55,635 bases of DNA from an uncultured Rhodothermales bacterium (GCA_964570345.1 CAZMXY010000006.1:1-55635), one strand, 5' to 3'. Positions 8,264 through 50,605 are shown, counted from the first letter of the stretch. Notes: generated by a model not told the origin, from the letters alone. Translations and numbers: made by a program.

Positions 8264-8294
8264 ATCGCACTTATCGATACGTTACCAGCCAATC

Positions 8295-18502: not shown

Positions 18503-18515
18503 TTCGTAATCCCCT

Positions 18516-19478
18516 GTGCCCAGAAAACCAGGTCCGTCTTCTTCCGTCGTGAGCGGAGGTCGTGCTCGGGCCGACGCATTGACTGCCGGGTCGGCCTCGA
18601 CCTCAAGGCTCGTTCGTGATTTCTTCGAGCTGACCAAGCCGGAAATTACGTTTCTGGTAGCCCTTTCGTCGGTCGCAGGCTTCGTCCTGGCGCCAACGGA
18701 TCTCTTCGACGCCCGAGCGTTCTTGTTTCTCGTCATCGGCGTGTGCCTGACGAGTGGAGGCGCCAGCACGCTCAACCACTGGCTGGAGCGAGAGAATGAC
18801 GCCCGCATGCGCCGGACGATGCGGCGACCCCTGCCGGCCGGGCGTGTTTCGCCGAACGCGGCCCGAAACTTCGGATGCGTCCTCGTCGCGGCCGGTGTGG
18901 GCATTCTGTGTCCGCTGACGAACCCGCTTACGGGAGTGATCGCCGTCGCCACGGCGCTGATCTATCTGCTCGTGTACACTCCGTTGAAGCAGCATTCGAC
19001 CTGGAACACCCTGATCGGAACGATCCCCGGCGCATTACCCGCCCTCGGAGGCTGGACGGCGGCGACCGGATCGATCGGCTGGGGTGGTGCTGCCGTGTTC
19101 GGCATTCTCGCAGCGTGGCAGATGCCGCACTTTCTTTCGCTGGCCTGGATGTATCGGAAGGATTACGAACGTGCCGGCTACGTGATGCTGCCCGTAGCCG
19201 AGCCCGACGGCGGCTCAACGGTTCGTCAGACCCTCTTCTACACGATCGCTCTCGTCCTGGTTAGTCTTGCACCATTGGTCCTCGGACTCAGCGAATGGCT
19301 CTACGGCATCGGGGCCGCAGGACTGGGTATCTGGTTTCTTGCGGCCTCGGTCGCGTTCTATCGATCTCGTTCCGTGCAGGATGCGCGGCGGGTGCTGCGC
19401 GTCTCGATAGCTTACGTCCCCGCCCTCGTATTCGTGATGCTCCTCGATCGCGTCACCCTCGGCGGCCTCTTTTCCTGA
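18516..19478 (+). CDS. ctaB: Protoheme IX farnesyltransferase (heme O synthase)
   Basis: UbiA superfamily: ELTKPEITFLV and the Asp-rich motif LNHWLERENDARMRRTMRRPLPAGR. It lies directly downstream of ctaA. GTG start at 18516; in-frame GTG 18549 and TTG 18579 are alternatives, and there is no ATG before the conserved region. Confidence 0.88.
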   Translation: MPRKPGPSSSVVSGGRARADALTAGSASTSRLVRDFFELTKPEITFLVALSSVAGFVLAPTDLFDARAFLFLVIGVCLTSGGASTLNHWLERENDARMRRTMRRPLPAGRVSPNAARNFGCVLVAAGVGILCPLTNPLTGVIAVATALIYLLVYTPLKQHSTWNTLIGTIPGALPALGGWTAATGSIGWGGAAVFGILAAWQMPHFLSLAWMYRKDYERAGYVMLPVAEPDGGSTVRQTLFYTIALVLVSLAPLVLGLSEWLYGIGAAGLGIWFLAASVAFYRSRSVQDARRVLRVSIAYVPALVFVMLLDRVTLGGLFS

Positions 19479-27588: not shown

Positions 27589-27681
27589 TCGACGTAATTT
27601 CCGCCCGCGCGGCGAGGGGTGGCGACTATCGGCCTGGTCGAATGCGTCGTCTATCCTCTCGATGGCTGGGATACGGCATTG

Positions 27682-29076
27682 CTACAGGACCTCTCCCCTT
27701 CGCCAGAGATCCACGGCGCGCGTCCATTCGTGTTGATAGTACGGCCGGCGCTGGAGGACGTAGTTCTCGAAGCCGTTTTCGGAGAACGCTCGCACTTTTT
27801 CGAAGAGATACGCGTTGGCGGGGTCGCGATCTCCGTAACTATAGAACCACGTCTCGGATTCCACGCGGCGATCGACGTAGAGCGGCGGTCCCAGGATGAC
27901 GTACACCATCCCCCGATCCGTTTTCCATCCCTCTTTGTAGCCGGTGAAAAGAAGATTGGCTTCCTCGACCCTCCCGTAATAGAGCTTGATGAGATTTGAG
28001 GCTACGTTTCGGTTCGACACGCGCGTTCCCCAGAACGCATCAAAGCGGCGCTTTGCTTCGACAGGGTTCTCGGCCGATTCGATAAATTCGATCTCGTCGT
28101 CGAAGGCGATGTAGGCCAACGCTTCAATGAGATCGTAGAGTGCGGCCATTTGGGGGTACGTCGAGTTTTTGACGGAGATCATTCGCTCCCGCTCCGCGAT
28201 CCTTTCGCCGTCCGCGTGGGTCCCTTCTACCGTGAGGCGGTACATTCCCGGAGAGAGCTTCGGCAGCGAGAATTCTACGACCGCATTTTCTTCCGGAGCG
28301 GTTATCGTACGGCGGGTCACCTGGATCGTATCCGCCTTGTCATAAAAAATACCCCGGGACGCCAGGGAGGCTCGCGTCGGCGCCAGCCAGTACGGGGGAG
28401 GCGCGATGCTCGTGTCGCTCTCAAATCTAACCAGCCGCAGCGCGACGGTTAGATTTTCGGTAGCATCCAGGTTGAGGAGTTGGACGGACGCCCGCAGCGA
28501 GTCCATCATTGCCGGCAAGTGAAGAGAAACGAGGGGTTCGAAGCCGCCCGCGTCTCGCAGCGCCTCGAGATGGACGTGACCGACGTAGGGCTCGGAATCA
28601 TGCCGTCCCGGAACCGTCACGGCCTGGCGCCGAATCGCGCTCGCGCCCGTTTCTTGGTCGGTGATCGTCACCTCGACGACGTACGAGCCGGCCGGCACGT
28701 CCAGCGGACGCATGCGAACCTGGGGCGCGGGCAGGAGCGTCGAGTCGTAGTGGGCGACACGGATGGTATCGGACGCGGTCGTCTCGAATACGCGATCCTT
28801 GGACGTCCGCTCCACGACTTCGATCAGGACGTCGTAGGCGGCTTCGAAGGCCTCTCCGGAACGCACGAACACGAGGGACGACAACGGGATACTGAAATGC
28901 GCCTCCAGAGACGCGGCACCGTCTCGCGCGCGCACGATCGTCTCCATGTCGAAATTCGGGACGCCGGCCTCGAAGGTCCGCGTTCGCCCGGAATCGGACG
29001 AATCCAGCGTACTCGGACCCGAGCACGAGGCGATCATCGTCGCCAGCGTGACTATGATGACGGTGGTCTCTCTCAT
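27682..29076 (-). CDS. GWxTD-domain lipoprotein (paralog 2)
   Basis: 464 aa. Lipoprotein signal IIVTLATMIASCSG. C-terminal YKEGWKTDRGMVYVILGPPLY. Shares blocks with paralog 1 along its whole length. Confidence 0.8.
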   Translation of the reverse strand: MRETTVIIVTLATMIASCSGPSTLDSSDSGRTRTFEAGVPNFDMETIVRARDGAASLEAHFSIPLSSLVFVRSGEAFEAAYDVLIEVVERTSKDRVFETTASDTIRVAHYDSTLLPAPQVRMRPLDVPAGSYVVEVTITDQETGASAIRRQAVTVPGRHDSEPYVGHVHLEALRDAGGFEPLVSLHLPAMMDSLRASVQLLNLDATENLTVALRLVRFESDTSIAPPPYWLAPTRASLASRGIFYDKADTIQVTRRTITAPEENAVVEFSLPKLSPGMYRLTVEGTHADGERIAERERMISVKNSTYPQMAALYDLIEALAYIAFDDEIEFIESAENPVEAKRRFDAFWGTRVSNRNVASNLIKLYYGRVEEANLLFTGYKEGWKTDRGMVYVILGPPLYVDRRVESETWFYSYGDRDPANAYLFEKVRAFSENGFENYVLQRRPYYQHEWTRAVDLWRRGEVL

Positions 29077-36546: not shown

Positions 36547-38142
36547 ATGACCCGAAAACACCGGCACGTTTTGTTTTGCGTGATCGTCTGGGCAACCGTT
36601 AGGCCGACGGCTGCGCAGGAGCACACGTTCATTCCGGTGGACGATTGGGCGTACGTCTACGTCGAGCGGCTCCAGCGCCGTGGGCATCTCCTCGAGCTCA
36701 ATCCTACCGCCCTGCCGTACACGCGCGGCGCGGTCCGAGCGGCGCTTCGGCGCATCGACGCCGGCCGACTCGCGGTCTCCGAGAAGCGATGGCTTGATCT
36801 GCTGCGCTCCGAATTTCGAACCGCAGGTCGGCGAACGCATCGACGAGGGGGAGACGGTACGCGGGCCGGAGTAGAGCTCGACGTGGGCATGCGAGGCTCG
36901 TCGGGCGAACGACTGGACGTCCTCCGGCCCGAAGCCCCGACCGATCCTCACTTAAATGCCGGATTGAACCTCTTCCCGAATGCCGGCCTTCACGGCTATC
37001 TCGAACGGGGACGTGCCGTCGCGCGCGGCGGCCTCCGATTCGACCTGTATTACCGGGACGATCCCGACGGTCTCGACGCCGCGAACCGGCTCATTACGCG
37101 CAATGACGAATCCTATCTGGGCTACGACGGCCGTTTCGCGTCAGTCTATCTCGGGCGTTTCGGTCGACACTGGGGGCTGCACGGACAGCCGGCGACGATG
37201 CTGAGCCGGAACCCCGTGAGCATGGATCAGCTCGCGTTGCGCCTCGGCGGCGAGACTCTGGCTTGGTATGGGCTATTGGGCGAACTCGACAGCGCGACGC
37301 CGGATGGACGATTCACCGGCACCGCCGGCGCCGACAGCGTCGGCGGTAGTATTCGTCGCTATCTGGCGACCCATCGCGTCGATTGGCGGCCGTCTCGACG
37401 GTTCGGGTTGACCGTCATGGAATCCGCACTCTACTCGGGTCCGAACGCCGGCATCTCCGTGAAATTCCTCAATCCCCTGCTGATCCACGTTTTTTCCGTC
37501 GACGGACGGCCCAAAAACGACGAGAACAACGGCCTGGTAGCCGGATTGCTTTGGGCACGGCTCGGCGACTGGACGACTACGTGGCAGCTCATGCTCGATG
37601 ACTTCGACCTCCTCGGTGAGACCGGGGAGCCGGCTGCCGCGGCGATCACGGGCTCGCTGATCTACGCCGGCTGGGCGTGGGCTGACGTAGGGGCAACGGT
37701 TGCGGCCGTGACGGCGCGGGCCTACAATACGCATCAGCCCGAAGGCCGTTATCTGTATCTGAATCGAGGCCTGGCGACGCAATTCAACGATTTCATTCAC
37801 GTCTCGGCGTTCGCGCCGCTCTACCTCGATCACGTGCTGCCCGGTGTCACTGCGATGCCGAAAGTGGACGTCCTGCTTCAAGGCGAGGCGAAACTCAACG
37901 AGCCGTTCCCCGGGGACGACGTCGGTCTCATATTACATGGCACGACCGAAAGAACCATACGGCCCGGACTCGAGGTCCGGCTGCAGTCGCATCGCAGCTG
38001 GTGGATCCGGATGGACGTCGGGCCGAATCTCGTCTCGAATTCGGCCCACCTAGGTGGACTTGATGCAACGAAATGGACATTTCTGGTCGAATTCGGTGCC
38101 AGCGTCCGCCTGGATCGCGGCCTCCGTCTATCCTTTCGATAA
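36547..38142 (+). CDS. Outer-membrane beta-barrel protein, possibly capsule-assembly Wzi family (tentative)
   Basis: 531 aa. Signal peptide VLFCVIVWATVRPTAAQE. The N-terminal helical segment DDWAYVYVERLQRRGHLLEL resembles the Y-x-x-L-x-R-L pattern I associate with Wzi-like proteins. It is followed by a long alternating beta-strand region. The Wzi call is memory-based, not searched. Confidence 0.65.
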   Translation: MTRKHRHVLFCVIVWATVRPTAAQEHTFIPVDDWAYVYVERLQRRGHLLELNPTALPYTRGAVRAALRRIDAGRLAVSEKRWLDLLRSEFRTAGRRTHRRGGDGTRAGVELDVGMRGSSGERLDVLRPEAPTDPHLNAGLNLFPNAGLHGYLERGRAVARGGLRFDLYYRDDPDGLDAANRLITRNDESYLGYDGRFASVYLGRFGRHWGLHGQPATMLSRNPVSMDQLALRLGGETLAWYGLLGELDSATPDGRFTGTAGADSVGGSIRRYLATHRVDWRPSRRFGLTVMESALYSGPNAGISVKFLNPLLIHVFSVDGRPKNDENNGLVAGLLWARLGDWTTTWQLMLDDFDLLGETGEPAAAAITGSLIYAGWAWADVGATVAAVTARAYNTHQPEGRYLYLNRGLATQFNDFIHVSAFAPLYLDHVLPGVTAMPKVDVLLQGEAKLNEPFPGDDVGLILHGTTERTIRPGLEVRLQSHRSWWIRMDVGPNLVSNSAHLGGLDATKWTFLVEFGASVRLDRGLRLSFR

Positions 38143-38184
38143 ACAGGTTCCTTTTCCGTACCACGAACTCATTCGGCTCGACCC

Positions 38185-38796
38185 GTGAACGTGACCGGTT
38201 CCTCCATCCAACGCGTGTGGCGGTCCCTCGTGGTCGCGCTCCTGACGTGCGCTCCGGTCGTCGGCTACGGCCAGGAGCCCTTCTCGAGGATCGAGATCTC
38301 CGCAGGCGGCACGTTCAACGTGAAAGAGGGCAACCTGACCGAGCGCAGAATCCACGATTATTGGAAACCGGGCTACGGCGGCGAGCTGTCGTTCATGACC
38401 CCGTTTTATTTTGGAGACGCCGAGGCGGCCGCGGCCGTTCATCGATACGAGTCCCTCACGACCGACGTCCCGAGCTTCGATGCCATCCTCGTGTATTTCG
38501 GATGGGGATACGACTGGGAGTTCTTTCCCGGCGTCTCGTGGTACAACGGCCTGCGCCTGGGCAACAATCGGATGACCTTCGACGATGACACGTTTCCGGG
38601 CGTAAGAAACGAGAGTGAGTTCTCAATAGCCGCGCAGACCCGTGCCACGATACATTTTTTTCAAAATACGGGTGTGTTCGCCTCCGCGCAGATTGCCCAG
38701 ACCTATACGTATATCCGGTTTCGTGCGGTGTACGTGTCGGCCGGAGTGACCACGTCGCTTTCTACGCCCGGCTGGCTGCAGTCTCTGATGCGATGA
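38185..38796 (+). CDS. Small outer-membrane beta-barrel-like protein
   Basis: 203 aa or less. In-frame GTG starts occur at 38185, 38191 and 38215. The last gives the signal WRSLVVALLTCAPVVGYG/QE. Alternating aromatic/hydrophilic strands (ELSFMTPFYFG, ILVYFGWGYDWEFF, YTYIRFRAVYVSAG). Confidence 0.6.
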   Translation: MNVTGSSIQRVWRSLVVALLTCAPVVGYGQEPFSRIEISAGGTFNVKEGNLTERRIHDYWKPGYGGELSFMTPFYFGDAEAAAAVHRYESLTTDVPSFDAILVYFGWGYDWEFFPGVSWYNGLRLGNNRMTFDDDTFPGVRNESEFSIAAQTRATIHFFQNTGVFASAQIAQTYTYIRFRAVYVSAGVTTSLSTPGWLQSLMR

Positions 38797-40910
38797 GGTG
38801 CGGTGGAATGTCGGTCGGGCGATTTTTCGTCATCGTCGCGCTCTCAGGGCTCGTCGGTACCTCGGCTGTTGCGGCCCCACACGGTCCCGACCCGCTCGGC
38901 ACGGCTGATGCGGCTCTCCACCATCCCCACCGTCTCGGCTCGGCAGGTGCGATTCGTACCGACTCGCTATACCACGACGCAATGGAGCCATGCGGTTCGA
39001 CGCCGGGCGCTGAGGTAATCACGCGCGAGGACATACGAAACGCGGGGTTAGTCCGCCTGAGCGAATTGTTTCGTCTATCGGAGAAATGGTACGCCTACTC
39101 CATCGACGGCTATCGGTGGGATGCGCAGGCAAGTGGTCTGTCACCCGCCTCGAATCCTCGATGGTCGCTGGTCATCGACGGCAAACCGGTCGACCTCGGG
39201 CTGATGGGAATCCAAAGCCTCGACGTCGCACCCATCCACATGAACGAGATCGCGTGCATTGAGCTGGTGTCCCGGCCGGCCGTCGTCGCCGGGGCCGTGC
39301 GTCCGTTCGGCACGATTCACGTCACCACGTACCGTCCTCGCCTCGGCCTGACCTTCAACGCCGGCGTATCGGCGGGCAACGAGATCAACGATCCGGGACC
39401 TTTTCTCTATACGCCTCAGGCCACCGCGAACGTGGACCGTATCGGGCCCGTCGGAACGGGGAGGATCGAACTCCGCTCCGACCGCCGATTCGCGCGGCTG
39501 TCCGGCAAGCTAGATGAGTTTCACGCGACGGATCTACAGATGGATCTCCGCGCCAAAGAGCTTTACGACGCCGACTCGAAGCCGCGCCTCAACGTGCAGG
39601 CCGTTGCCCTTACGGCCGGTATGGATGCAAATTGGGGTACGCATAGTTTGCTCGGCGGATACAGCGACACCGACGACCTGATCTTTCTCACCGCCCTCGG
39701 TCTCGAGGTCCCGTCGACCCGACGATTCGACTATCTCGGCGGCGGAGGCACGTTTCGACTCGGTCCGGCCGAGATGCGTTACCGCGGCGGATACCTCTCT
39801 CACGACCTCGTAAAGCGCCAGAATGCGGCGGATCTTGAGTTTGACTTCCGCAAGCGGCTGTATTCGGGAGCTCTCGAAAGTCGGATTCGATCAGGACCCG
39901 TCGGGGTATCTGCCGGCTGGTCGATCGACGTGACGGACGTGCGTTCGACGCAGGCACTGAGCGAAACGAAGACCCTGGTGACGCAAGTATTCGGCGAAAC
40001 GACCGGGTCCGTCGGCGGACTCGTGGAAGCGACGCTCCACGCAGCGTGGATTCAGGCCGACGAGCGCCCGGCCTTCGCCCTCTACCACCATCTCCACGTA
40101 ACGCCGGATCCGAATCACCGGATCGATCTGACGGCCTCACTGTCGCGGCGCACGACGTCGATGGACGAAACGCTGTGGCGGTGGACGCGTGTCGGATACG
40201 GACTGCCCGATCTCCCGTTGGAGGACGAGGAGCCGGCCTCGGGAAGCATCGAAGCATTTACGTCGCAGCCCGAGCCACGACTCGTCACGATTGATCTTGA
40301 GTACGCCGGTCGGGTCGCCGACGTCTTCCGGTACTCGATCGCCGGTTATTACCGGCGCTCCTTGTCGGAATACCTCCCCGTCTACGACCTGGCATACAAC
40401 CGACGGTCGTCCGGACTGACGGCGAAAACGCGCATTCAAAGCTTCGTCTCCGGTCACTACGCAGGGATTTCGGCCAGTGTCGGTCTCCGTCTGTTTCGTC
40501 GCCTGACGCAGCGGGTGACATACGTGGCCGAAGGTGCGACGGCGGGGGATCGGGCGTTCGAGGACGTACATGCTAGGGTGCCGGCGCAGCGCATCGCCTA
40601 TACCGTCACGTACTCGCCCGTAGATCGCTTCAGCCTGTTCGCACGAGTCCGGTATCACGTCGGCACGGTGTGGCAGGAATACCAATCCGTTGCGGCGTCT
40701 TCTAACGGATTCTATCCGGCCGAGCTGCCGGATGCGCTTCTAGTCGATTTTGCCGCGACGAAGCGATTTTGGAAGGACCACGTCGTTGCAAACGTCTCCG
40801 TCCGAAACGTGATGAACGAACCTCATCGCATGCATCCGATCGGCGCGATTTTCGACATGGCTTTCCATTTCGCCGTACGAGTGTCGTTCAATTCGGAGGC
40901 CGGATTCTAG
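38793..40910 (+). CDS. TonB-dependent-receptor-like outer-membrane protein (atypical plug plus barrel)
   Basis: 705 aa. The ATG at 38793 overlaps the upstream stop (ATGA); the ATG at 38808 (MSVGRFFVIVALSGLVGTSAVAA) is the alternative. The plug-like segment is EVITREDIRNAGLVRLSELFRL...LVIDGKPVDL...MNEIACIELV. The long barrel ends with an OMP beta-signal ...FAVRVSFNSEAGF. Confidence 0.7.
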   Translation: MRCGGMSVGRFFVIVALSGLVGTSAVAAPHGPDPLGTADAALHHPHRLGSAGAIRTDSLYHDAMEPCGSTPGAEVITREDIRNAGLVRLSELFRLSEKWYAYSIDGYRWDAQASGLSPASNPRWSLVIDGKPVDLGLMGIQSLDVAPIHMNEIACIELVSRPAVVAGAVRPFGTIHVTTYRPRLGLTFNAGVSAGNEINDPGPFLYTPQATANVDRIGPVGTGRIELRSDRRFARLSGKLDEFHATDLQMDLRAKELYDADSKPRLNVQAVALTAGMDANWGTHSLLGGYSDTDDLIFLTALGLEVPSTRRFDYLGGGGTFRLGPAEMRYRGGYLSHDLVKRQNAADLEFDFRKRLYSGALESRIRSGPVGVSAGWSIDVTDVRSTQALSETKTLVTQVFGETTGSVGGLVEATLHAAWIQADERPAFALYHHLHVTPDPNHRIDLTASLSRRTTSMDETLWRWTRVGYGLPDLPLEDEEPASGSIEAFTSQPEPRLVTIDLEYAGRVADVFRYSIAGYYRRSLSEYLPVYDLAYNRRSSGLTAKTRIQSFVSGHYAGISASVGLRLFRRLTQRVTYVAEGATAGDRAFEDVHARVPAQRIAYTVTYSPVDRFSLFARVRYHVGTVWQEYQSVAASSNGFYPAELPDALLVDFAATKRFWKDHVVANVSVRNVMNEPHRMHPIGAIFDMAFHFAVRVSFNSEAGF

Positions 40911-41815: not shown

Positions 41816-42874
41816 TCAGGCGATCAGTTCGGCGAGTAGCATCCGTAGATGCTCCTCATATGGAGGGCGAACGACGCCGCGTTCCGTCACGATCGCCGTC
41901 ACCAGCTCGCCCGGCGTGACGTCAAAGGCGGGATTGTACACCGCGATGCCCTCGGGAGCGGTCGGGCGTCCGAAGCCGTGCGTCACCTCGCTCGCTTCCC
42001 GTTCTTCGATCACGATCGCGGTCCCGTTCGGCGTCTCGAGATCGATCGTCGAGACGGGCGCCGAGACGTAGAAGGGAATCTCGTGCGCCTTCGCGAGAAC
42101 GGCCAGCGAGTACGTTCCAATCTTGTTCGCAACGTCACCGTTCGCTGCGATCCGATCCGCACCGACGAAGACCGCGTCGACTCGGCCCTCGCGCATGACG
42201 TGTCCGGCCATCGAGTCGGTAATCAAGGTCGCCGGCACGCCTGACTTCTCAAGTTCCCAGGCCGTGATCCGGCTGCCTTGCAGCAGAGGACGGGTCTCGT
42301 CGACGTACGCTCGAAGGTCCACCCCTTTCTCGCGGCCGAGCAGGAGCGGTGCCAGCGCCGTGCCGTATCCCGACGTGGCCACCCCACCCGTGTGGCAGTG
42401 CGTCAACACCGTCATGCCGCCGTGCAAGAGCGACAGGCCGTGCTCGCCGAGCCGCCGACCCGCCTCGAGGTCGTCTTGAAAGATGGCGTGGGCCTCCTCG
42501 AGGAGGCGTCGTCTGAGTGCATCCACGTCTACGGGCCGGTTCGTGCACTGCTCGTCGACCGTGCGCTGCATGCGATCGAGCGCGTAGAACAGGTTCACGG
42601 CCGTCGGTCGGGTCGTACGCAACAGATCGATTGCCGCTTTCGCCGCCTCGCAAGGATCACCCGCAGGCGCGGGGTCGTGCCTCAAGGCCAGGACCACACC
42701 GTAGGCCGCCGCGACCCCGATGGCCGGTGCTCCGCGAACACGGAGCATGCGAATCGCTTCGGCCATTGCTTCCGGTGTCCGGATGTCTAACCACACCTCC
42801 TCCAGAGGCAGCCGCGTCTGATCGAGAAGATCAATCCGGGCCTCATGGTCGATCCAGTGAAGCGGTGGGATCAT
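41816..42874 (-). CDS. mtnA: S-methyl-5-thioribose-1-phosphate isomerase
   Basis: 352 aa, eIF-2B alpha/beta/delta-related. LDQTRLP, RVRGAPAIGVAAAYG, VLTHCHTGGVATSGYGTA, VGADRIAANGDVANKIGTY, NPAFDVTP. Confidence 0.9.
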   Translation of the reverse strand: MIPPLHWIDHEARIDLLDQTRLPLEEVWLDIRTPEAMAEAIRMLRVRGAPAIGVAAAYGVVLALRHDPAPAGDPCEAAKAAIDLLRTTRPTAVNLFYALDRMQRTVDEQCTNRPVDVDALRRRLLEEAHAIFQDDLEAGRRLGEHGLSLLHGGMTVLTHCHTGGVATSGYGTALAPLLLGREKGVDLRAYVDETRPLLQGSRITAWELEKSGVPATLITDSMAGHVMREGRVDAVFVGADRIAANGDVANKIGTYSLAVLAKAHEIPFYVSAPVSTIDLETPNGTAIVIEEREASEVTHGFGRPTAPEGIAVYNPAFDVTPGELVTAIVTERGVVRPPYEEHLRMLLAELIA

Positions 42875-42956
42875 TACGGTTGAGCGCTGATAGTTAATAT
42901 ACCGGCTCCGTTGCGCGGACGGTGCGCGATGCCAATTCGTCTAACGCAGAAACGAC

Positions 42957-43865
42957 ATGACGGCTCCGAAGCACATACCACGTCGTACGGCGATTCTCGA
43001 ACTCCTGCTCGGGTGGATTGAGGCGCGCGACGACGATGGCGGCGTTCGGTGGCTGCGGGACACGCTGGGCGAACTCCGTCGAGGCGCACCGGAATGGCGC
43101 TTTTTTACCAGTTTCAGTGCCGTTCCGCGACGTCTCGGAAAGAGCGACCTGCGCTTGTCGGACGGCGATTTGAAAAACGCCCTCACCGAACGTGCAGGGT
43201 GGGACCCGTCGCGCTGGAGCATCGATCAGGCCGCCCGAACGGCACTCACGCTTGCTCTGCCGAGTGACGATGCCGATGAATATGTCGCGACGCTCGACAA
43301 AGTCTTTTCGACGGCCGACGTGGGCGAATCCGTCGCGTTGTATCAAAGCCTGCCGCTCCTCCCTCATCCCGAGCACTTCACGTCGCGCGCTGCCGAAGGC
43401 CTACGGAGCAATATGACGTCCGTTTTCAACGCGGTGGCGCTCGACAACCCCTATCCGGCCGAATACCTCAGCGAGGCCGCCTGGAATCAGATGGTGCTCA
43501 AGGCCGTATTCGTCGGCAGCCCTTTGCACCGCATCTTCGGACTGGACACGCGTTCGAATGCGGACCTGGCGCGGATGCTTGTCGACTATGCGCGGGAGCG
43601 GCGGGCCGCCTCGCGATCGGTCGAGCCCGAGCTGTGGCGTCCGGTCGGGCCTTTCATCGACGATGCGATGATTCACGATCTGGACGTCGCCTTGCAGGGC
43701 AGTCGCGACGAGGAAAGTCAGGCCGCGGCCCTCGCGCTCCATGCCTCCGGCTCGGAGCCCGCCCTGCGCCTGCTCGAGTCGAAGCCGGATTTGAAGCAGC
43801 AAATTGAGAGCGGATCCCTCTCGTGGGCTATAATTGGCCGGAACCGCATCGTATCGGAGTCATAG
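42957..43865 (+). CDS. eboA: EboA-like protein (first gene of ebo-type cluster; no known catalytic domain)
   Basis: 302 aa, ATG start, alpha-helical, no motif of a known enzyme family. The assignment rests on its position as the first gene of a cluster with the exact ebo gene order, and on its general length and character. Needs an HMM check. Confidence 0.65.
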   Translation: MTAPKHIPRRTAILELLLGWIEARDDDGGVRWLRDTLGELRRGAPEWRFFTSFSAVPRRLGKSDLRLSDGDLKNALTERAGWDPSRWSIDQAARTALTLALPSDDADEYVATLDKVFSTADVGESVALYQSLPLLPHPEHFTSRAAEGLRSNMTSVFNAVALDNPYPAEYLSEAAWNQMVLKAVFVGSPLHRIFGLDTRSNADLARMLVDYARERRAASRSVEPELWRPVGPFIDDAMIHDLDVALQGSRDEESQAAALALHASGSEPALRLLESKPDLKQQIESGSLSWAIIGRNRIVSES

Positions 43866-43877
43866 TTTTTCATCTGA

Positions 43878-44828
43878 TTGTCGACCTCTCCAATGCTTCC
43901 TCATCCCCAACTCTACGTCGATCCGCACGTTCACATGATCTCCCGCACGACGGACGATTATGAGAAGATGCGGGATGCCGGCGTCGTCGCCGTGATCGAA
44001 CCCGCGTTCTGGCTCGGCCAGCCGCGCACCACGGTCGGATCGTTCATGGATTATTTTTCGATGATCGTGGGGTGGGAACGTTTTCGGGCCGGGCAGTTCG
44101 GAATCCGTCATTACTGCACGATCGGATTGAATGCGAAGGAGGCGAACAACGAGCCGCTGGCTGACGAAGTGATGGAGCTGCTCCCCCTCTATGCGATGAA
44201 AGAGGGCGTCGTCGCCATCGGCGAGATCGGATTCGACGACATGACGCGGGCTGAAGAAAAGTACTTCGGCATGCAGCTCCAGCTCGCCAATGAGCTCGAC
44301 ATGCTCGTGCTCATCCACACGCCCCATCGCAACAAGAAAGAGGGCACGACGCGAAGCATGGACCTCTGCGAAGAGCACGGCCTCGAGCCGTCCCGCGTAA
44401 TCGTCGATCACAACAACGAAGAGACGGTCAAGGAGGTGCTCGACCGCGGGTACTGGGCCGCGTTCACCATCTATCCGCACACGAAGATGGGTAACGAACG
44501 CATGGTGGAGGTGGTGCGCCGTTACGGCTCCACTCGGATCTTCGTCGACAGCGCGGCGGATTGGGGCATCAGCGACCCCGTTGCCGTACCGAAGACCGCT
44601 CGGCTCATGCTGGAGCGCGGGATCTCCGGTGACGACGTCACGGCCGTCACCTACGGCAACGCCCTCGAGGCGTACGGTCAGAGCGGACAAATCGACGAAA
44701 AGGACTGGATGGAGCCCGCCGCGATCGATCAGCGCCAGCTCTACGGAGGCAACTCCGTCTTGCGCGGCGGCCAGGCGCCGGTCGTAGACGCGCAGATCGC
44801 GGATCGAAACGATCTCATCATCGAATGA
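43878..44828 (+). CDS. eboB: TatD-family metal-dependent hydrolase (EboB)
   Basis: 316 aa. Amidohydrolase-fold metal ligands: YVDPHVHM (HxH), AIGEIGFD, LIHTPH, VDHNNE, FVDSAAD. The track start at 43878 is TTG; the ATG at 43893 is the alternative. It lies 12 nt after the eboA stop. Confidence 0.8.
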   Translation: MSTSPMLPHPQLYVDPHVHMISRTTDDYEKMRDAGVVAVIEPAFWLGQPRTTVGSFMDYFSMIVGWERFRAGQFGIRHYCTIGLNAKEANNEPLADEVMELLPLYAMKEGVVAIGEIGFDDMTRAEEKYFGMQLQLANELDMLVLIHTPHRNKKEGTTRSMDLCEEHGLEPSRVIVDHNNEETVKEVLDRGYWAAFTIYPHTKMGNERMVEVVRRYGSTRIFVDSAADWGISDPVAVPKTARLMLERGISGDDVTAVTYGNALEAYGQSGQIDEKDWMEPAAIDQRQLYGGNSVLRGGQAPVVDAQIADRNDLIIE

Positions 44829-45727
44829 GGACGTCCGTTCCGGTCCGGTTTCGCGCCTACATCGAGCTGACGAGGCCGGCCAACGTCGTCACGGCGTTTG
44901 CCGACGTCCTCGCCGGCTGCGCGGCGGTGGGGGTATTCGGATCATTCTCCGACGCCGGGCTGCCGCACGTTCTGTGGTTGCTCGTGTCGACCGGCGGCCT
45001 CTACGCCGGCGGCGTGGTATTGAACGACTTTTTCGATGCGGCCGTTGACGCCGTAGAGCGTCCGGAGCGACCGATCCCCAGCGGCCGGGCATCACGGAGG
45101 AGCGCCGCGGTGCTGGGCGCGTCGCTGCTTGCCCTTGGGATGGGGGCCGCGGCATTCGTTTCGACGACGTCGTTGCTGGTCGCCGCCGTGATCGTGTTCT
45201 TCGTCGTGGTCTATGATGCGGGAGGTAAGCGCCACTTCCTTCTTGGGCCGATCAACATGGGCCTGTGCCGAGGGGGCAATCTCTTGCTCGGCGTAAGCGC
45301 CGTGCCGGCCCTGCTCGATGAATTGTGGTTTCTTGCATTGCTTCCGCTCGTCTACGTCGGGGCCGTGACGGCCGTGAGCCGAGGCGAGGTTCACGGAGGA
45401 AGCGGCGCCACGGGCGTGCTGGCCATCACGCTCGCCGGCAGCGTGGCGGCCGCACTCTTCCTTCTCGGCATCCGGATCGGCTACCGAACCGTTCATGCGG
45501 CGCCGTTCGTGGTGCTCTTCATTTTTCTCGTCTTTCCGGCTTTCATGCACGCGGCGAGGCAGCCGTCGCCGGATGTCGTCCGCCGGGCCGTCAAACGCGG
45601 AGTCCTTTCGCTCGTCGTGATGGACGCGTCGCTGGCCGCGGGATTCGCGGGTTGGCCCATCGGGCTGGCCGTCCTCGCTCTGCTTCCGATTTCCGCGGCA
45701 CTGGCGCGTCTCTTTGCCGTCACGTAG
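44825..45727 (+). CDS. eboC: UbiA-family aromatic/polyprenyl prenyltransferase (EboC)
   Basis: 300 aa, ~8 TM helices. First Asp-rich motif VLNDFFDAAVDAVERPERPIPSGR. The ATG overlaps the eboB stop (ATGA at 44825-44828). Confidence 0.85.
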   Translation: MRTSVPVRFRAYIELTRPANVVTAFADVLAGCAAVGVFGSFSDAGLPHVLWLLVSTGGLYAGGVVLNDFFDAAVDAVERPERPIPSGRASRRSAAVLGASLLALGMGAAAFVSTTSLLVAAVIVFFVVVYDAGGKRHFLLGPINMGLCRGGNLLLGVSAVPALLDELWFLALLPLVYVGAVTAVSRGEVHGGSGATGVLAITLAGSVAAALFLLGIRIGYRTVHAAPFVVLFIFLVFPAFMHAARQPSPDVVRRAVKRGVLSLVVMDASLAAGFAGWPIGLAVLALLPISAALARLFAVT

Positions 45728-45835
45728 AATGGCGGGGTCGTCTGCGCGATCTTTTCTCGTCCGGTTCGGTTAGAGATGCGCCACACATATCGCGACTACC
45801 CACGGTCGCCGTCTCGAAGGAAGTAATGTGTACCG

Positions 45836-47035
45836 ATGCAGACCATCCGACAGGAAGTGAAGGTTGGGTTCCGATATGACGTCCACTTCACCGAAGGAGT
45901 GTTCGACGTCGAAAACAACCTGCTTGCCGACATCATCGAACGTTCCGACGACCCGTTTCCGCGACGCGTTCTCGCCGTCGTCGATCACGGTCTTCTCGAT
46001 CATTATCCCGAGCTGCTCAAGAAGGTCCTACGCTACTTGAACGAGCATAGCGCTCTCGAGAGCGCCGGAGCGCCGCTTACGATTCAGGGCGGCGAAACCG
46101 CAAAGAACGATCCGGGTGCAGTCGAGCGTATCCGCCGAGCGATTCATGCAAGCGGACTGTGCCGCCACTCCTACCTACTCGCGATCGGCGGGGGCTCGGT
46201 GCTCGATGCCGCGGGATATGCGGCCGCGACCGCGCATCGAGGGATTCGCCTGATCCGTGTGCCGACGACCGTGCTCAGTCAGAATGATTCGGCGATCGGC
46301 GTGAAGAACGGCGTCAATGCCTTCGGTACCAAGAATTTCCTCGGGACGTTTACTCCACCCTACGCAGTCGTCAGCGACTTTTCGTTTCTGAAGACGCTGG
46401 AGGATCGGGACTGGCGCGCCGGCATCGCCGAGGCCATCAAGGTGGCGCTCATCAAGGACGCCGATTTCTTTCGAGAGCTAGAGGAGAACGCACAGAAGCT
46501 CGCCCCACCGGTCCGTAGTCAGGATGCGATGGAATCGCTCGTCTATCGCTGCGCGAAGCTGCATCTCGAGCATATCGCGACGTCGGGCGACCCGTTCGAA
46601 ATGGGAACCTCGCGCCCGCTGGATTTCGGGCACTGGGCCGGGCACCAGCTCGAACAGCTGACGGATTACGAGCTGCGTCACGGAGAGGCCGTCGGCATCG
46701 GGATCGTCCTGGACAGCACTTATTCCCATCTCCGCGGCCTGCTCGACAAAGAGGACTGGCTCCGGATCCTCGGCCTCTTCAGCCGTCTAGGCTTCGACCT
46801 TTACGTCCCTGAGATGGAGCAGCGTTTGACCGAACCCGATCATCCTGCTTGCCTCTTCCGCGGGCTCGAAGCCTTTCGCGAACATCTGGGAGGAGAGCTC
46901 ACGATCATGCTGCTCGAAGGCATCGGCAGCGGAGTCGAAGTCCACGAGGTCGATCTAAACACGTACCGCGAGGCGGTCGCAAAATTGAGAGCGGCACGAG
47001 CCGTCGCCGAGAACGTCTACGATCGAGCGATCTAA
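45836..47035 (+). CDS. eboD: 3-dehydroquinate-synthase-like sugar-phosphate cyclase (EboD)
   Basis: 399 aa. DHQS fold: GGETAKN, LAIGGGSVLDAAGYAAA, IRVPTTVLSQNDSAIGVKNGVN, metal-binding His region (HLEHI...GHWAGHQLE...LRHGEAVGIG). No other shikimate-pathway genes are nearby. Confidence 0.85.
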   Translation: MQTIRQEVKVGFRYDVHFTEGVFDVENNLLADIIERSDDPFPRRVLAVVDHGLLDHYPELLKKVLRYLNEHSALESAGAPLTIQGGETAKNDPGAVERIRRAIHASGLCRHSYLLAIGGGSVLDAAGYAAATAHRGIRLIRVPTTVLSQNDSAIGVKNGVNAFGTKNFLGTFTPPYAVVSDFSFLKTLEDRDWRAGIAEAIKVALIKDADFFRELEENAQKLAPPVRSQDAMESLVYRCAKLHLEHIATSGDPFEMGTSRPLDFGHWAGHQLEQLTDYELRHGEAVGIGIVLDSTYSHLRGLLDKEDWLRILGLFSRLGFDLYVPEMEQRLTEPDHPACLFRGLEAFREHLGGELTIMLLEGIGSGVEVHEVDLNTYREAVAKLRAARAVAENVYDRAI

Positions 47036-47041
47036 GAATTC

Positions 47042-48256
47042 ATGCGCGTAGGACCCGACGATTTTTTCCACCTCACCTACTGCACGAACATCCATCCCGG
47101 CGAGTCCTGGCCCGAGGTCGAGTCCAATCTTAAGCGGTATGCGCTCCCGTTGAAAAGGCGCCTATCGCCGGAGGCGCCCTTCGGCATCGGCCTCCGTCTC
47201 TCCAACGAAGCCGCACGCGACCTCGTCGCCGACGACCGCCTCCCGCGTCTGCGCGAGTGGATGGATGAGAATGGGCTCTACGTGTTTACGCTGAACGGTT
47301 TCCCCTTTGGCGGATTCCACCGGCAGGTCGTCAAAGACCGCGTTTACGAGCCGGACTGGCGCACGGAGGCACGCGTCGAGTATACGATGAGGCTCATCGA
47401 CGTTCTCGAAGCGCTTCTCCCTGACGACGTCGAAGGGAGCATCTCGACGTCGCCCATTTCTTACAAGCCGTGGCTGACCGAAGCGGAGACCGCCGATACG
47501 CTTCAGGTCGGTGCGCGCAACCTGATCCGCATTGGGGCGAGGCTCCACGAGATCCATGAACGATCGGGAAAGCTCATCCACGTCGGGATCGAGCCTGAAC
47601 CGGACTGTCTCATCGAGAACGCCAAAGAAACGGTAGACTTCTTCAACGATTACCTCCTTCCCGCTTCCGGAAAGCCTCCCGGCGGGCCCCGGGGGCGCAA
47701 TAACGGATTTCCGATCGACGCCGATCTCCTCCGCCGTCACGTCCGCGTTTGCTACGACGCCTGTCACTTCGCCGTCGAGTTCGAGAATCCGAGCGACGCG
47801 CTGACTCGTTTCGACGCCGCCGGCATCCTTCTGAGCAAGATCCAGATCAGCTCCGCACTGCGCGTCGACCTCCGCCAGGATCGTGGCACCTTGCTTGAGG
47901 AGCTTCGTCCCTTCGCCGAATCGACGTATCTGCATCAGGTCGTCGCGCGGGACGCGGGCGGGCGACTGAACCGCTATCGTGACCTTCCTGACGCGCTGCC
48001 CCGCCTTGAAAGCGATCGGGCCGAGGAATGGCGCATTCATTACCACGTGCCCATCTTCCTGGAACGGTACGGCCTGCTGCACTCCACCCAGTCCGATTTG
48101 CTGCATAGCATCGACCTGATCCTGGCGGATCGCCGCACGGCCCATCTCGAAATCGAAACCTATACGTGGGAGGTTCTTCCGAATCGGCTTAAGACGGATG
48201 CCGTCACGTCCATCGAACGCGAATTCGATTGGATACGGGGTCGGATCACAAGCTAA
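47042..48256 (+). CDS. eboE: Xylose-isomerase-like TIM-barrel protein (EboE)
   Basis: 404 aa, starting 6 nt after the eboD stop. Beta/alpha-barrel pattern with conserved acidic/His positions (GIEPEPDC, VCYDACHFAVEFE, HLEIETYTW), as in sugar-phosphate isomerase/epimerase-fold proteins. Confidence 0.78.
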   Translation: MRVGPDDFFHLTYCTNIHPGESWPEVESNLKRYALPLKRRLSPEAPFGIGLRLSNEAARDLVADDRLPRLREWMDENGLYVFTLNGFPFGGFHRQVVKDRVYEPDWRTEARVEYTMRLIDVLEALLPDDVEGSISTSPISYKPWLTEAETADTLQVGARNLIRIGARLHEIHERSGKLIHVGIEPEPDCLIENAKETVDFFNDYLLPASGKPPGGPRGRNNGFPIDADLLRRHVRVCYDACHFAVEFENPSDALTRFDAAGILLSKIQISSALRVDLRQDRGTLLEELRPFAESTYLHQVVARDAGGRLNRYRDLPDALPRLESDRAEEWRIHYHVPIFLERYGLLHSTQSDLLHSIDLILADRRTAHLEIETYTWEVLPNRLKTDAVTSIEREFDWIRGRITS

Positions 48257-48264
48257 GCGGATCC

Positions 48265-49641
48265 ATGCAGAATACGGCCGTCCTCAACGTCGTGGGGCTC
48301 ACCCGGGAATTGCTCCGACACGCTCCCTTCCTGTCTGCGTGGGCGGAGGATGCGCGGCCGAGCGAGGTAACGCCCTGCCTTCCTGCCGTCACCTGCCCGG
48401 TACAGTCCACTTATCTCACCGGCGTGATGCCGGCCGTCCACGGCATCGTCGGCAACGGCTGGTACTTTCGTGACGAATGCGAGATCAAATTCTGGCGCCA
48501 GTCGAACCGGCTCGTGCAATCGAAGAACCTCTGGGAAACGGCACGCGAGAGCGATCCCGAGTTCACCTGCGCGAATCTGTTCTGGTGGTACAACATGTAC
48601 TCGTCGGTCGATTACGCGGTAACGCCCCGGCCGATGTATCCGGCCGACGGTCGCAAGATTCCGGACGTATGGACGAACCCACCCGAGCTGCGGCAGGATT
48701 TGCAAGACGCGCTCGGAAGGTTTCCCCTTTTCAATTTCTGGGGGCCCAACACCAGCATAGACGCGAGTGCGTGGATTGCCCACGCATCCATCCGCGTGGT
48801 CGAACGATTCGATCCAACCCTCACGCTCGTCTATCTTCCGCATCTCGACTACGTGCTACAGCGGGCGGGCCCTCTCGGTGACGACGTACTCCGGCACGTC
48901 CGTGAGATTGACGCCGTCTGCGAAGAACTCGTCACTTTTTTCGAGCGGCGCGGGACGCAGCTCATCATCCTGTCCGAATACGGCATCACGCGCGTGCGCC
49001 GCGGCGTTTCGTTGAACCGCACGTTGCGCGAACAGGGCTTCGTTTCGGTCCGAGAGGAGCTCGGACGCGAGCTGCTCGATGCCGGCGCAAGTCGCGCCTT
49101 TGCCGTGGCGGATCATCAGGTGGCGCACGTCTACGTACGGGACAAGGCCGATGTCTCCCCCGTTCGCGATCTGCTGGCGCACCACGACGGCGTCGACCTG
49201 GTGCTCGAAGGGCGCAGTCGGAGTGCGGCGGGACTCGATCACGAGCGGTCGGGTGAGCTCGTCGCCGTGGCGGAGGCCGAAGCGTGGTTTACGTACTATT
49301 ACTGGATGGACGACGAACGCGCTCCTGATTTCGCCCGGACGGTGGACATTCACCGAAAACCCGGATACGATCCGGTCGAGCTCTTCGTGGATCCGGACCT
49401 GAGGGCTCCGGCGGCCAGAGTCGGCTTTCGCTTGCTGCAGAAGAAGCTCGGATTTCGGTACCTGATGGACGTGATACCGCTCGAACCCTCTCTGGTGAGT
49501 GGGTCGCACGGGAGACTGCCGGACGCACCCGAGCACGGACCGCTGCTGATTTCGCGACGTGCGGACCTGGTGGGCGGAGCGCACCTCCACGCCGCGGCCG
49601 TTCACGACGTCATTTTAAATCATCTCCGTGGGCGCCGGTAG
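48265..49641 (+). CDS. eboF: Nucleotide pyrophosphatase/phosphodiesterase (alkaline-phosphatase superfamily; EboF)
   Basis: The ATG at 48265 (MQNTAVLNVVGLT), 8 nt after the eboE stop, is preferred over the track start at 48229. The nucleophile region LPAVTCPVQSTYLTGVMPAVHGIVGNGWY is typical of type I phosphodiesterase/NPP enzymes. Later metal ligands: YLPHLDY, SEYG, GSHG. Confidence 0.8.
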   Translation: MQNTAVLNVVGLTRELLRHAPFLSAWAEDARPSEVTPCLPAVTCPVQSTYLTGVMPAVHGIVGNGWYFRDECEIKFWRQSNRLVQSKNLWETARESDPEFTCANLFWWYNMYSSVDYAVTPRPMYPADGRKIPDVWTNPPELRQDLQDALGRFPLFNFWGPNTSIDASAWIAHASIRVVERFDPTLTLVYLPHLDYVLQRAGPLGDDVLRHVREIDAVCEELVTFFERRGTQLIILSEYGITRVRRGVSLNRTLREQGFVSVREELGRELLDAGASRAFAVADHQVAHVYVRDKADVSPVRDLLAHHDGVDLVLEGRSRSAAGLDHERSGELVAVAEAEAWFTYYYWMDDERAPDFARTVDIHRKPGYDPVELFVDPDLRAPAARVGFRLLQKKLGFRYLMDVIPLEPSLVSGSHGRLPDAPEHGPLLISRRADLVGGAHLHAAAVHDVILNHLRGRR

Positions 49642-50605
49642 CCATGAGCCGGCGCTTGCCGCTCTCGGAGGTCCACATTTCCTTCATTACGTATCGGGGC
49701 CGCGACTTCACCTCTTCGTACACGCGCGCCAGATACGCGCCTACGATGCCCAGAAAGAACAGTTGAACGCCGCCGAAGAAGAATGCCGCGAAGATGAGCG
49801 AAGCCCACCCCGTGACTGGAACGCCGAAGACGTACTTGTCGACCAGAACCCAGACGAGACCCACAACCGACAGCATCGAGAGTCCGATGCCTACGGTAGC
49901 GGCATACCACAGCGGTTTGTCGGAAAACGACGTAATGCCGGTAGTGGCGAGACTCCAGAGCTTACGAAAAGGATATTTCGTCCTTCCCGCGGCTCTCTTC
50001 GGTCGCGCGTAGCGGATGCCGATCTGGTTGTATCCTAACCAGGCAACGAGACCGCGTACGAACGGCTGACGCTCCTTCAGGGCATTGAAGGCGTCGAGAA
50101 CCTCGCGACTGATGAGCCGGAAATCGCCGGTGTCGAGAGGCGCTTCGATGTCGCTCATCTGCTTGAAAAATCGATAGAACACGAACGTCGCCGCACGCCT
50201 GAAGATCGTCTCACCCTCTCGCTCTTCACGAATTCCGTAAACGACGTCGTAGCCGTCGCGCCACTTCTCCACCATCTCCGAGACGATCCAGAAAGGATCC
50301 TGTAGGTCGGCGTCCATGATCACGGCCGCGTCCGCCTCGACGAACTCGAGCCCGGCGGTGATGGCAATCTGGTGCCCGAAATTCCTCGAGAATCGAAGCA
50401 GTTTGTACCCGGGTTGGCCGGCGGTCAAGTCGCGCACGCGCTCCGCCGTCGCGTCGCGACTCCCGTCATCTACCAGCACGACCTCCACGACATCGGGATG
50501 CTCGGAGCGATAGGCTTCGAGTTCCTCGATCAAGAGCGGGACCACGGCCTCTTCGTTGTAGAGGGGGATGACGATGGCGACGGTGTTGCGGCCTCGATCG
50601 GTCAT
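49610..50605 (-). CDS. GT2 polyprenyl-phosphate glycosyltransferase (GtrB/ArnC/DPM1 architecture)
   Basis: 331 aa. GT-A motifs VAIVIPLYNEE, VDDGSRD, MDADLQD (DxD), plus two C-terminal TM helices (VGIGLSMLSVVGLVWVL, IFAAFFFGGVQLFFLGIVGAYL). Its 3' end overlaps the eboF 3' end by 32 nt in convergent orientation. Confidence 0.85.
   Translation of the reverse strand: MTDRGRNTVAIVIPLYNEEAVVPLLIEELEAYRSEHPDVVEVVLVDDGSRDATAERVRDLTAGQPGYKLLRFSRNFGHQIAITAGLEFVEADAAVIMDADLQDPFWIVSEMVEKWRDGYDVVYGIREEREGETIFRRAATFVFYRFFKQMSDIEAPLDTGDFRLISREVLDAFNALKERQPFVRGLVAWLGYNQIGIRYARPKRAAGRTKYPFRKLWSLATTGITSFSDKPLWYAATVGIGLSMLSVVGLVWVLVDKYVFGVPVTGWASLIFAAFFFGGVQLFFLGIVGAYLARVYEEVKSRPRYVMKEMWTSESGKRRLMATGAHGDDLK

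Follow-up and report, generated by a model that had tools for sequence, protein, structure and literature searches.

The canonical ebo operon of an uncultured Rhodothermales bacterium and its predicted meroterpenoid product

The window analyzed here, a stretch of 55,635 nucleotides from an uncultured Rhodothermales bacterium (GCA_964570345.1, CAZMXY010000006.1:1-55635), carries six open reading frames on the plus strand across positions 42957–49641, as given by an ORF listing. They encode, in order, an EboA-family protein (eboA, 42957–43865, 302 amino acids), a predicted TatD-fold metal hydrolase of the amidohydrolase superfamily with a TTG start (eboB, 43878–44828, 316 amino acids), a predicted membrane UbiA-like aromatic prenyltransferase (eboC, 44825–45727, 300 amino acids), a DHQS-like cyclase (eboD, 45836–47035, 399 amino acids), a xylose-isomerase-like TIM-barrel protein (eboE, 47042–48256, 404 amino acids), and a predicted phosphodiesterase of the NPP/alkaline-phosphatase superfamily (eboF, 48265–49641, 458 amino acids). 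An 82-nt intergenic region (42875–42956, plus-strand numbering) separates eboA from the divergent mtnA gene on the minus strand, while the 3′ end of eboF shares a 32-nt overlap with a convergent GT2 gene. Exactly six genes, without extras, lie between these two neighbors.

Reading of the junctions shows the TAG stop codon of eboA followed after 12 nt by the TTG of eboB, a 4-nt ATGA overlap of eboB and eboC (44825–44828), and gaps of 6 nt between eboD and eboE and of 8 nt between eboE and eboF. The last value takes ATG 48265 as the eboF start (458 amino acids; TTG 48229 would give 470), which we favor because methionine at position 1 is at least 97% conserved among 76 orthologues. The eboC–eboD spacer on the same strand (45728–45835) spans 108 nt and contains a CGATCTTTT motif, common to L163 and L166, as well as a weak hairpin. 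Packing and junctions (12, −4, 108, 6 and 8 nt) are thus as described in an earlier note on this DNA, and the motifs it quoted, DPHVHM, NDFFDAAVD, GGGSVLDAAGY and VPTTVLSQNDSAIGVKNG, are all present in the translations.

From its position, the 82-nt mtnA–eboA region is presumed to be the operon promoter region; a sigma-70 consensus scan of it gave no match. Across 42600–50000, sigma-70 scanning, which did not cover Bacteroidota-type promoters, returned two promoter-like sites (ca. 1.6 expected), and a scan for intrinsic terminators returned nine terminator-like sites (ca. 5.4 expected), none of either kind meaningfully placed. Rfam models detected neither a riboswitch nor a leader close to the operon, and the window contains no tRNAs. 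The operon is flanked by genes for MtnA, TonB, outer-membrane proteins, GT2, PorV2, and PhoU-Pst, and the remainder of the window is housekeeping. In agreement with the earlier note, the 55-kb window holds no scytonemin-type or other cargo genes; neither an FPP synthase nor an oxygenase is encoded in it, and the ferritin-like accessory pair of other ebo variants was not found in the window or in Rhodothermales loci. One outer-membrane neighbor, a protein of 705 amino acids, gave a weak, sub-threshold match to the TonB-dependent-receptor plug and no PDB sequence match, so that its link to TonB receptors is speculative.

The first protein had been described as lacking a recognizable domain, which holds for the local Pfam copy, where EboA has no match, but not for NCBIfam: an EboA-family match is present at 325.8 bits (NF035937, EboA_family), just over the cut-off of 320, accompanied by 186 bits against the domain model NF035938 (cut-off 50). 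A total of 1944 homologues were found, for which PF28008 is precomputed and the NCBI name is EboA. The AF2 model (pLDDT 93.9) is all helical, and a fold search against the PDB returned nothing at E ≤ 0.001, the matches being generic HEAT/ARM solenoids (best E 0.04, TM ≤ 0.44). On this model, EboA is probably an all-α, HEAT/ARM-like solenoid without catalytic function. W216R is the sole departure among 67 positions that are at least 97% conserved, and the protein has a C-terminal helical extension of ca. 70 amino acids that occurs in a subset of the family. A deoxyhypusine-hydroxylase-like di-iron protein was considered and dropped, as EboA has no invariant histidine. An exact copy of EboA is otherwise found solely on one Logan contig of 3.2 kb (SRR12687320).

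The earlier domain calls hold for the remaining proteins. EboB matches PF01026 (TatD_DNase) at 63 bits and conserves the DPHVHM metal motif; against the TatD DNase model TIGR00010 it reaches 38.8 bits, far under the cut-off of 206. EboF matches PF01663 (Phosphodiest) at 194 bits and has 142 positions that are at least 97% conserved, among them those of the LPAVTC..Q.TylTG nucleophile motif. A dedicated curated model exists for neither protein, and both were assigned by Pfam and by position-matched identity to the proteins encoded at the corresponding positions of other ebo loci (57–83% for EboB, 52–73% for EboF). The TIM-barrel assignment of EboE comes from the equivalog model NF035939 (TIM_EboE, 493 bits, cut-off 250); the match to the Pfam AP_endonuc_2 TIM barrel is weak (18.2 bits). 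EboE has 103 positions that are at least 97% conserved, and its exact protein product was not found on record. EboC scores 380 bits against its equivalog model NF035940 (cut-off 250) and 77.9 bits against Pfam UbiA, stays below the cut-off of the SCO3242-family model (163.8 bits, cut-off 260), and lies far under those of the UbiA and MenA models. It conserves GLY.GG...NDFFDAAVD, with tyrosine in place of the UbiA arginine together with the DxxDxxxD motif, and this Tyr and N-DxxDxxxD signature matches that described for the characterized UbiA-297.

EboD matches the N- and C-terminal DHQ_synthase domains (116.5 and 110 bits) and scores 555 bits against NF004852, the de facto EboD model (cut-off 333), which separated EboD from AroB when known members of both groups were scanned as controls. 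Against the aroB model TIGR01357 it reaches 226 bits, under the cut-off of 305, whereas true AroBs score 334–410. In a neighbor-joining tree that left out DOIS and aminoDHQS, the EboD clade was split from AroB and from S7P cyclases/DDGS with 100% bootstrap support; identity to AroB is 26–32%. Klebsiella AroB residues K226, N244, and T248 correspond to H, D, and W in EboD, clade-specific active-site substitutions, and a lysine invariant in the sampled AroBs is histidine in all EboDs. A PDB sequence search returned no EboD structure, only DHQS, EEVS, DDGS, and DOIS at E values of 1e-26 to 1e-41. Judged by sequence, the window cyclase falls in the EboD clade, apart from AroB, EEVS/EVS, and DDGS; model scores, tree, and control scan rule out that it nests within AroB.

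The gene order ABCDEF is kept in the nearest Rhodothermales metagenome-assembled genomes, as are the chromosomal neighbors, and in most of ca. 55 cyanobacterial loci. Recurrence of this order in the nearest Rhodothermales and in dozens of loci from cyanobacteria puts the arrangement well outside what chance would produce. In a sister Rhodothermales lineage, eboC has been relocated away from the cluster to a site directly behind the gene for the 705-amino-acid outer-membrane protein, and the eboC–eboD junction is a recurrent breakpoint in both cyanobacteria and this lineage. Against the genome collections, the window proteins reach best identities of 55–81%; they resemble orthologues from cyanobacteria (51–73% identity to those of Nostoc) more closely than those from Cytophagales (30–69% identity to one cluster). 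At positions conserved to 95%, each of the six proteins shows one to six mostly conservative changes. The operon is inherited vertically within its Rhodothermales family, and the window copy shows no departure from the ebo family. NCBIfam models and synteny thus bear out the earlier reading of a complete, stand-alone cluster, and 42957–49641 is almost certainly a canonical, intact eboABCDEF operon with EboA to EboF in order. Salt-lake samples are the source of some of the closest relatives.

What such an operon makes has become clearer in the recent literature, and the statement that the product is chemically undefined is now outdated. EboC orthologues were reported in 2022 to farnesylate hydroxyquinaldic (hydroxyquinoline-2-carboxylic) acids (PMC9235831), and three of them, from three phyla, farnesylate a 6,7,8-trihydroxyquinaldic acid ester and 8-HQA in vitro (bioRxiv 10.64898/2026.05.21.724671; PMC9235831). 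A preprint of May 2026 found the ebo core genes to be needed for thallusin/saccharoquinoline biosynthesis in five phyla (bioRxiv 10.64898/2026.05.21.724671). This link comes from one source that is not peer-reviewed and that combines comparative genomics, deletions, isotope labeling, and enzyme assays; Rhodothermales are neither tested nor mentioned in it. Thallusin was lost in single deletions of eboB, eboC, eboE, and eboF, and aspartate labeling showed that all four carbons and the nitrogen enter the quinoline (bioRxiv 10.64898/2026.05.21.724671). Bacteroidota producers carry exactly the ABCDEF operon, and Nostoc punctiforme is itself a thallusin producer (bioRxiv 10.64898/2026.05.21.724671). 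EboD orthologues are reported to convert M6P to DEI (bioRxiv 10.64898/2026.05.21.724671; PMC12904256).

By analogy, the window operon probably makes a farnesylated hydroxyquinoline-carboxylate meroterpenoid of the saccharoquinoline/thallusin type, a judgment that concerns product class and is separate from that on cluster identity. After cyclitol formation, the cyclitol would be dehydrated or isomerized and condensed with L-aspartate to give the quinaldic-acid core. For this second step, candidates are EboE, whose TIM barrel relates it to the inosose dehydratase/isomerase superfamily, and EboB as an amidohydrolase-fold cyclase or hydrolase; EboF would remove a phosphate ester, and EboA would be a non-catalytic helical-repeat partner. 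Membrane-bound EboC is then expected to add a farnesyl group from FPP to trihydroxyquinaldic acid and possibly to cyclize the product, and oxidative ring opening would finally yield thallusin, an Fe(III)-binding morphogen. Thallusin leaves unexplained the cytoplasmic build-up of scytonemin monomer in Nostoc ebo mutants and the indole-derived nematode repellents of Pseudomonas; the preprint treats both phenotypes as possible indirect effects (bioRxiv 10.64898/2026.05.21.724671). In eustigmatophytes, the role of the operon was still termed enigmatic in a paper of July 2026.

The earlier note favored a generic prenylated cyclitol(-phosphate) lipid or carrier, which is no longer the best-supported product. 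Following Klicki 2018, EboC would prenylate the EboD cyclitol directly, and the resulting membrane-anchored polyprenyl-cyclitol(-phosphate) would ferry hydrophobic metabolites over the inner membrane or, at a locus without cargo genes, serve as a generic envelope lipid. A prenylated cyclitol was proposed by Yurchenko 2016, and a carrier lipid of this kind is consistent with the scytonemin monomer that stays cytoplasmic in Nostoc ebo mutants (PMC6282210), with the NCBI name ‘metabolite traffic protein’ still borne by EboA and EboE, with EboC being an integral membrane UbiA enzyme, and with the envelope-gene neighbors seen here (TonB, outer-membrane proteins, a polyprenyl-phosphate-type GT2, PorV2). 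These neighbors are, however, conserved within one Rhodothermales family only, not across ebo loci. Moreover, characterized EboC orthologues take FPP as donor and aromatic quinolines, but not phenols or catechols, as acceptors (bioRxiv 10.64898/2026.05.21.724671; PMC9235831), labeling shows that aspartate becomes joined to the ring derived from the cyclitol, and deletion abolishes a defined, diffusible product (bioRxiv 10.64898/2026.05.21.724671). Given the farnesylation of quinaldic acids and the ebo–thallusin preprint, the carrier is now the weaker reading, and we consider it improbable. Only a little more credible, and still unlikely, is a different DEI-derived signaling or regulatory molecule that varies between lineages and acts on the metabolism of its producer, as proposed for EDB-dependent tryptophan/indole catabolism. 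A February 2026 review regards the final product as unknown and possibly a signal or regulator and notes that EDB phenotypes involve indole compounds (PMC12904256); lineage-specific accessory genes (ferritin-like pair, eboG, Ino1-3) and the modest identity to the Cytophagales cluster point the same way. Thallusin was nevertheless detected in ebo strains of five phyla including Nostoc (bioRxiv 10.64898/2026.05.21.724671), whose proteins are the closest characterized relatives of those in the window, and the latter keep essentially all family-invariant residues, giving no sign of altered specificity.

Two further readings start from the annotation of individual genes. EboB and EboE might be DNA-repair nucleases like YtkR4/YtkR5 that confer resistance to a DNA-damaging natural product, an idea raised by a yatakemycin study that saw ebo-like clusters around YtkR4/YtkR5 homologues and compatible with the Pfam placement of EboB in TatD_DNase and, weakly, of EboE in AP_endonuc_2. 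This is very unlikely: EboB shares only ca. 24% identity with YtkR4 and passes none of the TatD exonuclease models, it would be left unexplained why the genes are obligately linked to those for a cyclase, a prenyltransferase, and a phosphodiesterase, and deletion causes loss of a metabolite (bioRxiv 10.64898/2026.05.21.724671). That the locus is an ordinary shikimate/quinone operon, pairing AroB with a UbiA-type prenyltransferase for ubiquinone or menaquinone, is suggested by the label ‘3-dehydroquinate synthase’ on NF004852 and many NCBI records. The aroB model scores, the neighbor-joining tree, and the control scan refute it, the lysine-to-histidine exchange and the low UbiA and MenA scores of EboC also speak against it, and we give it practically no weight.

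For this Rhodothermales family, use of the product by the producer itself is hinted at by the linkage of ebo to TonB and the 705-amino-acid outer-membrane protein, which is conserved across the family, and by the eboC relocation behind the gene for the latter. That the product is here an envelope-associated or Fe(III)-binding metabolite for the producer rather than an algal morphogen, either metallophore-like and of the thallusin type or distinct and DEI-derived, is a doubtful suggestion at present. Should the thallusin model be true, uncultured Rhodothermales would join the predicted producers of an algal morphogen and iron chelator active at picomolar levels. The locus is an ordinary family member with no feature beyond already described ebo operons, and offers a compact six-gene template, free of insertions and accessory genes, that suits reconstitution in a heterologous host.

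Among known systems, the Actinomycetota-type cluster (Saccharomonospora, Streptomyces) shares with the window an EboA domain, TatD, EboE, a phosphodiesterase, and a UbiA-like prenyltransferase; unlike the window, it lacks EboD and has an inositol-3-phosphate synthase, an extra TIM-barrel protein, and a prenyltransferase of the SCO3242 family. The EDB cluster of Pseudomonas fluorescens NZI7 and the Pseudomonadota/Deinococcota variants encode homologues of the same enzymes, but their order differs (D-x-E-C-A-B-F in Mycetohabitans, D-x-B-E-C-F in Deinococcus), and EDB/eboG-type variants have extra genes or eboG replacing eboA, whereas the window has the plain six with EboA present. The literature links drawn earlier, with plastids of eustigmatophytes, with scytonemin export in Nostoc, and with EDB in Pseudomonas, stand, except that EDB does not equal ebo: it is a nine-gene variant (PMC12904256). 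Orthologues in the scytonemin-associated cluster of Nostoc punctiforme (Klicki 2018) are 49–77% identical to the window proteins, and most cyanobacterial loci are ordered ABCDEF; the window differs in having no nearby scy genes, and its eboC and eboD are not separated by a glycosyltransferase/tyrA/dsbA insertion. With the ABCDEF-type operon of Bacteroidota, Cyanobacteria, and eustigmatophyte plastids (Yurchenko et al. 2016; bioRxiv 10.64898/2026.05.21.724671), the window agrees in its six families, their order, the single strand, the tight junctions, and the freedom from extra genes, and differs in its uncultured Rhodothermales host.

The ebo operon at 42957–49641 (+) of the window is genuine, complete and in every way typical of its family. 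It comprises eboA (42957–43865, 302 aa), eboB (43878–44828, 316 aa), eboC (44825–45727, 300 aa), eboD (45836–47035, 399 aa), eboE (47042–48256, 404 aa) and eboF (48265–49641, 458 aa counted from the ATG), all on the + strand. The ORF listing and a reading of the sequence confirm the placement and the junctions of 12, −4 (ATGA, 44825–44828), 108, 6 and 8 nt given in the earlier note. A TTG lies in frame at 48229, and the N-termini of orthologues back ATG 48265 as the eboF start. The eboC–eboD spacer (45728–45835) contains a weak hairpin followed by CGATCTTTT, which recurs in the same spacer of two Rhodothermales relatives, L163 and L166; this junction is a site of insertions and breaks in other lineages. 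The eboF 3' end overlaps by 32 nt (49610–49641) that of a convergent polyprenyl-phosphate-type, PgfS/ArnC-like GT2 gene (49610–50605, −), which is present in the relatives L005–L008 and L163 and missing from others. GC content is flat (0.62–0.63 in the cluster vs 0.59–0.64 across the window), and the operon therefore carries no compositional sign of an island. Housekeeping genes make up the flanks and the rest of the 55-kb window, in keeping with its description as a stand-alone cluster.

Pfam matches among the encoded proteins were TatD_DNase, UbiA, DHQ_synthase with DHQS_C, a weak xylose-isomerase-like TIM barrel and Phosphodiest, and EboA had no match in the local Pfam copy. We regard the curated NCBIfam models as decisive for identity: EboA (NF035937, 325.8 bits, cut-off 320), as had been proposed for the first protein, EboC (NF035940, 380 bits, cut-off 250), EboE (NF035939, 493 bits, cut-off 250) and EboD (NF004852, 555 bits, cut-off 333). 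In a control scan, cluster-encoded EboDs of Aureibacter, Deinococcus and Gloeothece scored 531–594 against NF004852, and genuine AroBs scored 163–203 against it and 334–410 against TIGR01357, the true aroB equivalog; judged by this split, NF004852, labelled '3-dehydroquinate synthase', is shown to be in effect an EboD model. In each of the six proteins, residues conserved at 95% among orthologues are kept except for 1–6 mostly conservative changes. The AF2 model of EboA is confident (pLDDT 93.9) and shows an all-alpha solenoid that matches nothing in the PDB significantly; EboA also lacks an invariant His.

The reading of the cyclase as AroB is refuted. Its score against TIGR01357 (226 bits) lies below the cut-off of 305, and in a neighbor-joining tree (21 sequences, 364 columns, 300 bootstraps, outgroups from annotated plasmid records) it clusters with ten cluster-encoded EboDs (48–68% identity). 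With 100% bootstrap support this group splits from the outgroups, namely six AroBs, three sedoheptulose-7-P cyclases and one DDGS (26–32% identity), a position outside AroB that the earlier note had anticipated. EboD and outgroup sequences have the metal and NAD core residues in common. Klebsiella AroB K226, N244 and T248, invariant in the six AroBs and invariantly different in EboDs, correspond to H243, D263 and W267. In the DHQS structure K226 is presumably the Lys contacting the DAHP carboxylate, and its loss in EboD would fit a substrate without a carboxylate.

The ebo operon was first defined in 2016 (PMC5133447), was tied in 2018 to export of the scytonemin monomer in Nostoc and, as the nine-gene variant EDB, to nematode repellence; its product or role is still described as unknown in a review of February 2026 and a paper of July 2026. 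For farnesylation, UbiA-297/EboC orthologues accept 8-hydroxyquinoline-2-carboxylic acid and quinaldic acid and reject phenols and catechols (PMC9235831). In a preprint that is not peer reviewed (bioRxiv 10.64898/2026.05.21.724671), thallusin was made by strains of five phyla, N. punctiforme among them; all producers had ebo genes and non-producers lacked them, single deletions of eboB, C, E or F abolished thallusin, all four aspartate carbons and the nitrogen were incorporated, and EboC farnesylated 6,7,8-trihydroxyquinaldate.

As the product we favor a farnesylated hydroxyquinoline-carboxylate of the saccharoquinoline/thallusin type. As shown for orthologues, the window EboD would form the cyclitol DEI and EboC would farnesylate a hydroxyquinaldic acid in the membrane. 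EboE, whose TIM-barrel superfamily includes inosose dehydratases and isomerases, would modify DEI; EboB, with the amidohydrolase fold of cyclic amidohydrolases, would contribute to ring closure or to hydrolysis; EboF would strip off a phosphate ester; and EboA, whose domain in actinomycetes adjoins or is fused with a TIM-barrel protein, would serve as a non-catalytic partner. A nuclease or repair role, to which the TatD_DNase match might point, is a weak alternative. That the operon instead supplies a lipid carrier appears unlikely given the EboC substrates, and a different DEI-derived signal has an equally small chance of being the product. A phosphomannomutase/phosphoglucomutase gene (15854–17248, −), 26 kb upstream and not linked to the operon, may bear on mannose-phosphate supply. 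A second UbiA-family gene (18516–19478, +; 192 bits) adjoins a CtaA/COX15 gene (pair, 17444–19478) and is probably heme O synthase CtaB, unrelated to ebo.

Elsewhere in the window lie a bacterial class A RNase P RNA (1–380, +; 203.5 bits), its 5' end cut by the window edge, two tandem GWxTD-domain paralogues (26191–29076, −) and a 971-aa GH3 glycosidase–beta-lactamase-family fusion (22867–25782, +). An outer-membrane trio (36547–40910; Wzi-like 531 aa, 203 aa and 705 aa) ends in a predicted outer-membrane protein whose last residue is Phe (38793–40910, +). Its TonB-dependent-receptor plug signature stays below threshold (NF053590, E 3e-5; Pfam Plug, E 0.11), and a PDB sequence search gave no match; it is followed by a TonB gene on the other strand. 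In other ebo carriers, namely Aureibacter, Mycetohabitans, Gloeothece and Symploca, the cluster is flanked by a conserved gene pair (L173, 233–3293; L174, 2418–5436; L171, 7855–11136; L003) for a ~590–660-aa hypothetical protein and a PF12902 'Ferritin-like' protein, which might be an accessory oxidase module and was not found in the window or the Rhodothermales loci.

The window GatB is 72–74% identical to those of uncultured Rhodothermales MAGs; an identical EboA is encoded on one Logan contig of 3.2 kb, and no record of the exact EboE was found. The nearest relatives (L161, L162, L163 and L166; Ebo identities 55–81%) share with the window the order TonB(−), MtnA(−), eboABCDEF(+), [GT2(−)], PorV2-like OMP(−), PhoU(−), so that the operon is a vertically inherited chromosomal locus. 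The expected conservation of the six-gene order holds in L161, L163 and L166, and the short L162 contig ends inside eboC. In a sister Rhodothermales lineage (nine MAGs), eboAB and eboDEF occupy the same chromosomal place without eboC between them; in L005 a DUF4172-Fic/DOC-HTH gene (7353–8456, −) lies there. Four of the nine carry eboC elsewhere (L164, L165, L167 and L168, ~6001–6930), directly 3' of homologues of the outer-membrane trio.

The interest of this locus lies in the unfinished biochemistry of the ebo family, the window copy being no more tractable than many described ones. The ABCDEF order is found in most of ~55 cyanobacterial loci, often with a ~3-kb insertion between eboC and eboD, described as GT/tyrA/dsbA (Yurchenko 2016; PMC5133447). 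The window proteins are clearly nearer to their cyanobacterial orthologues in Nostoc than to the ones in a Cytophagales bacterium of their own phylum (EboA, 56% vs 30%; EboC, 55% vs 38%; EboE, 51% vs 41%), and these identities hint at an old transfer between Rhodothermales and Cyanobacteria.
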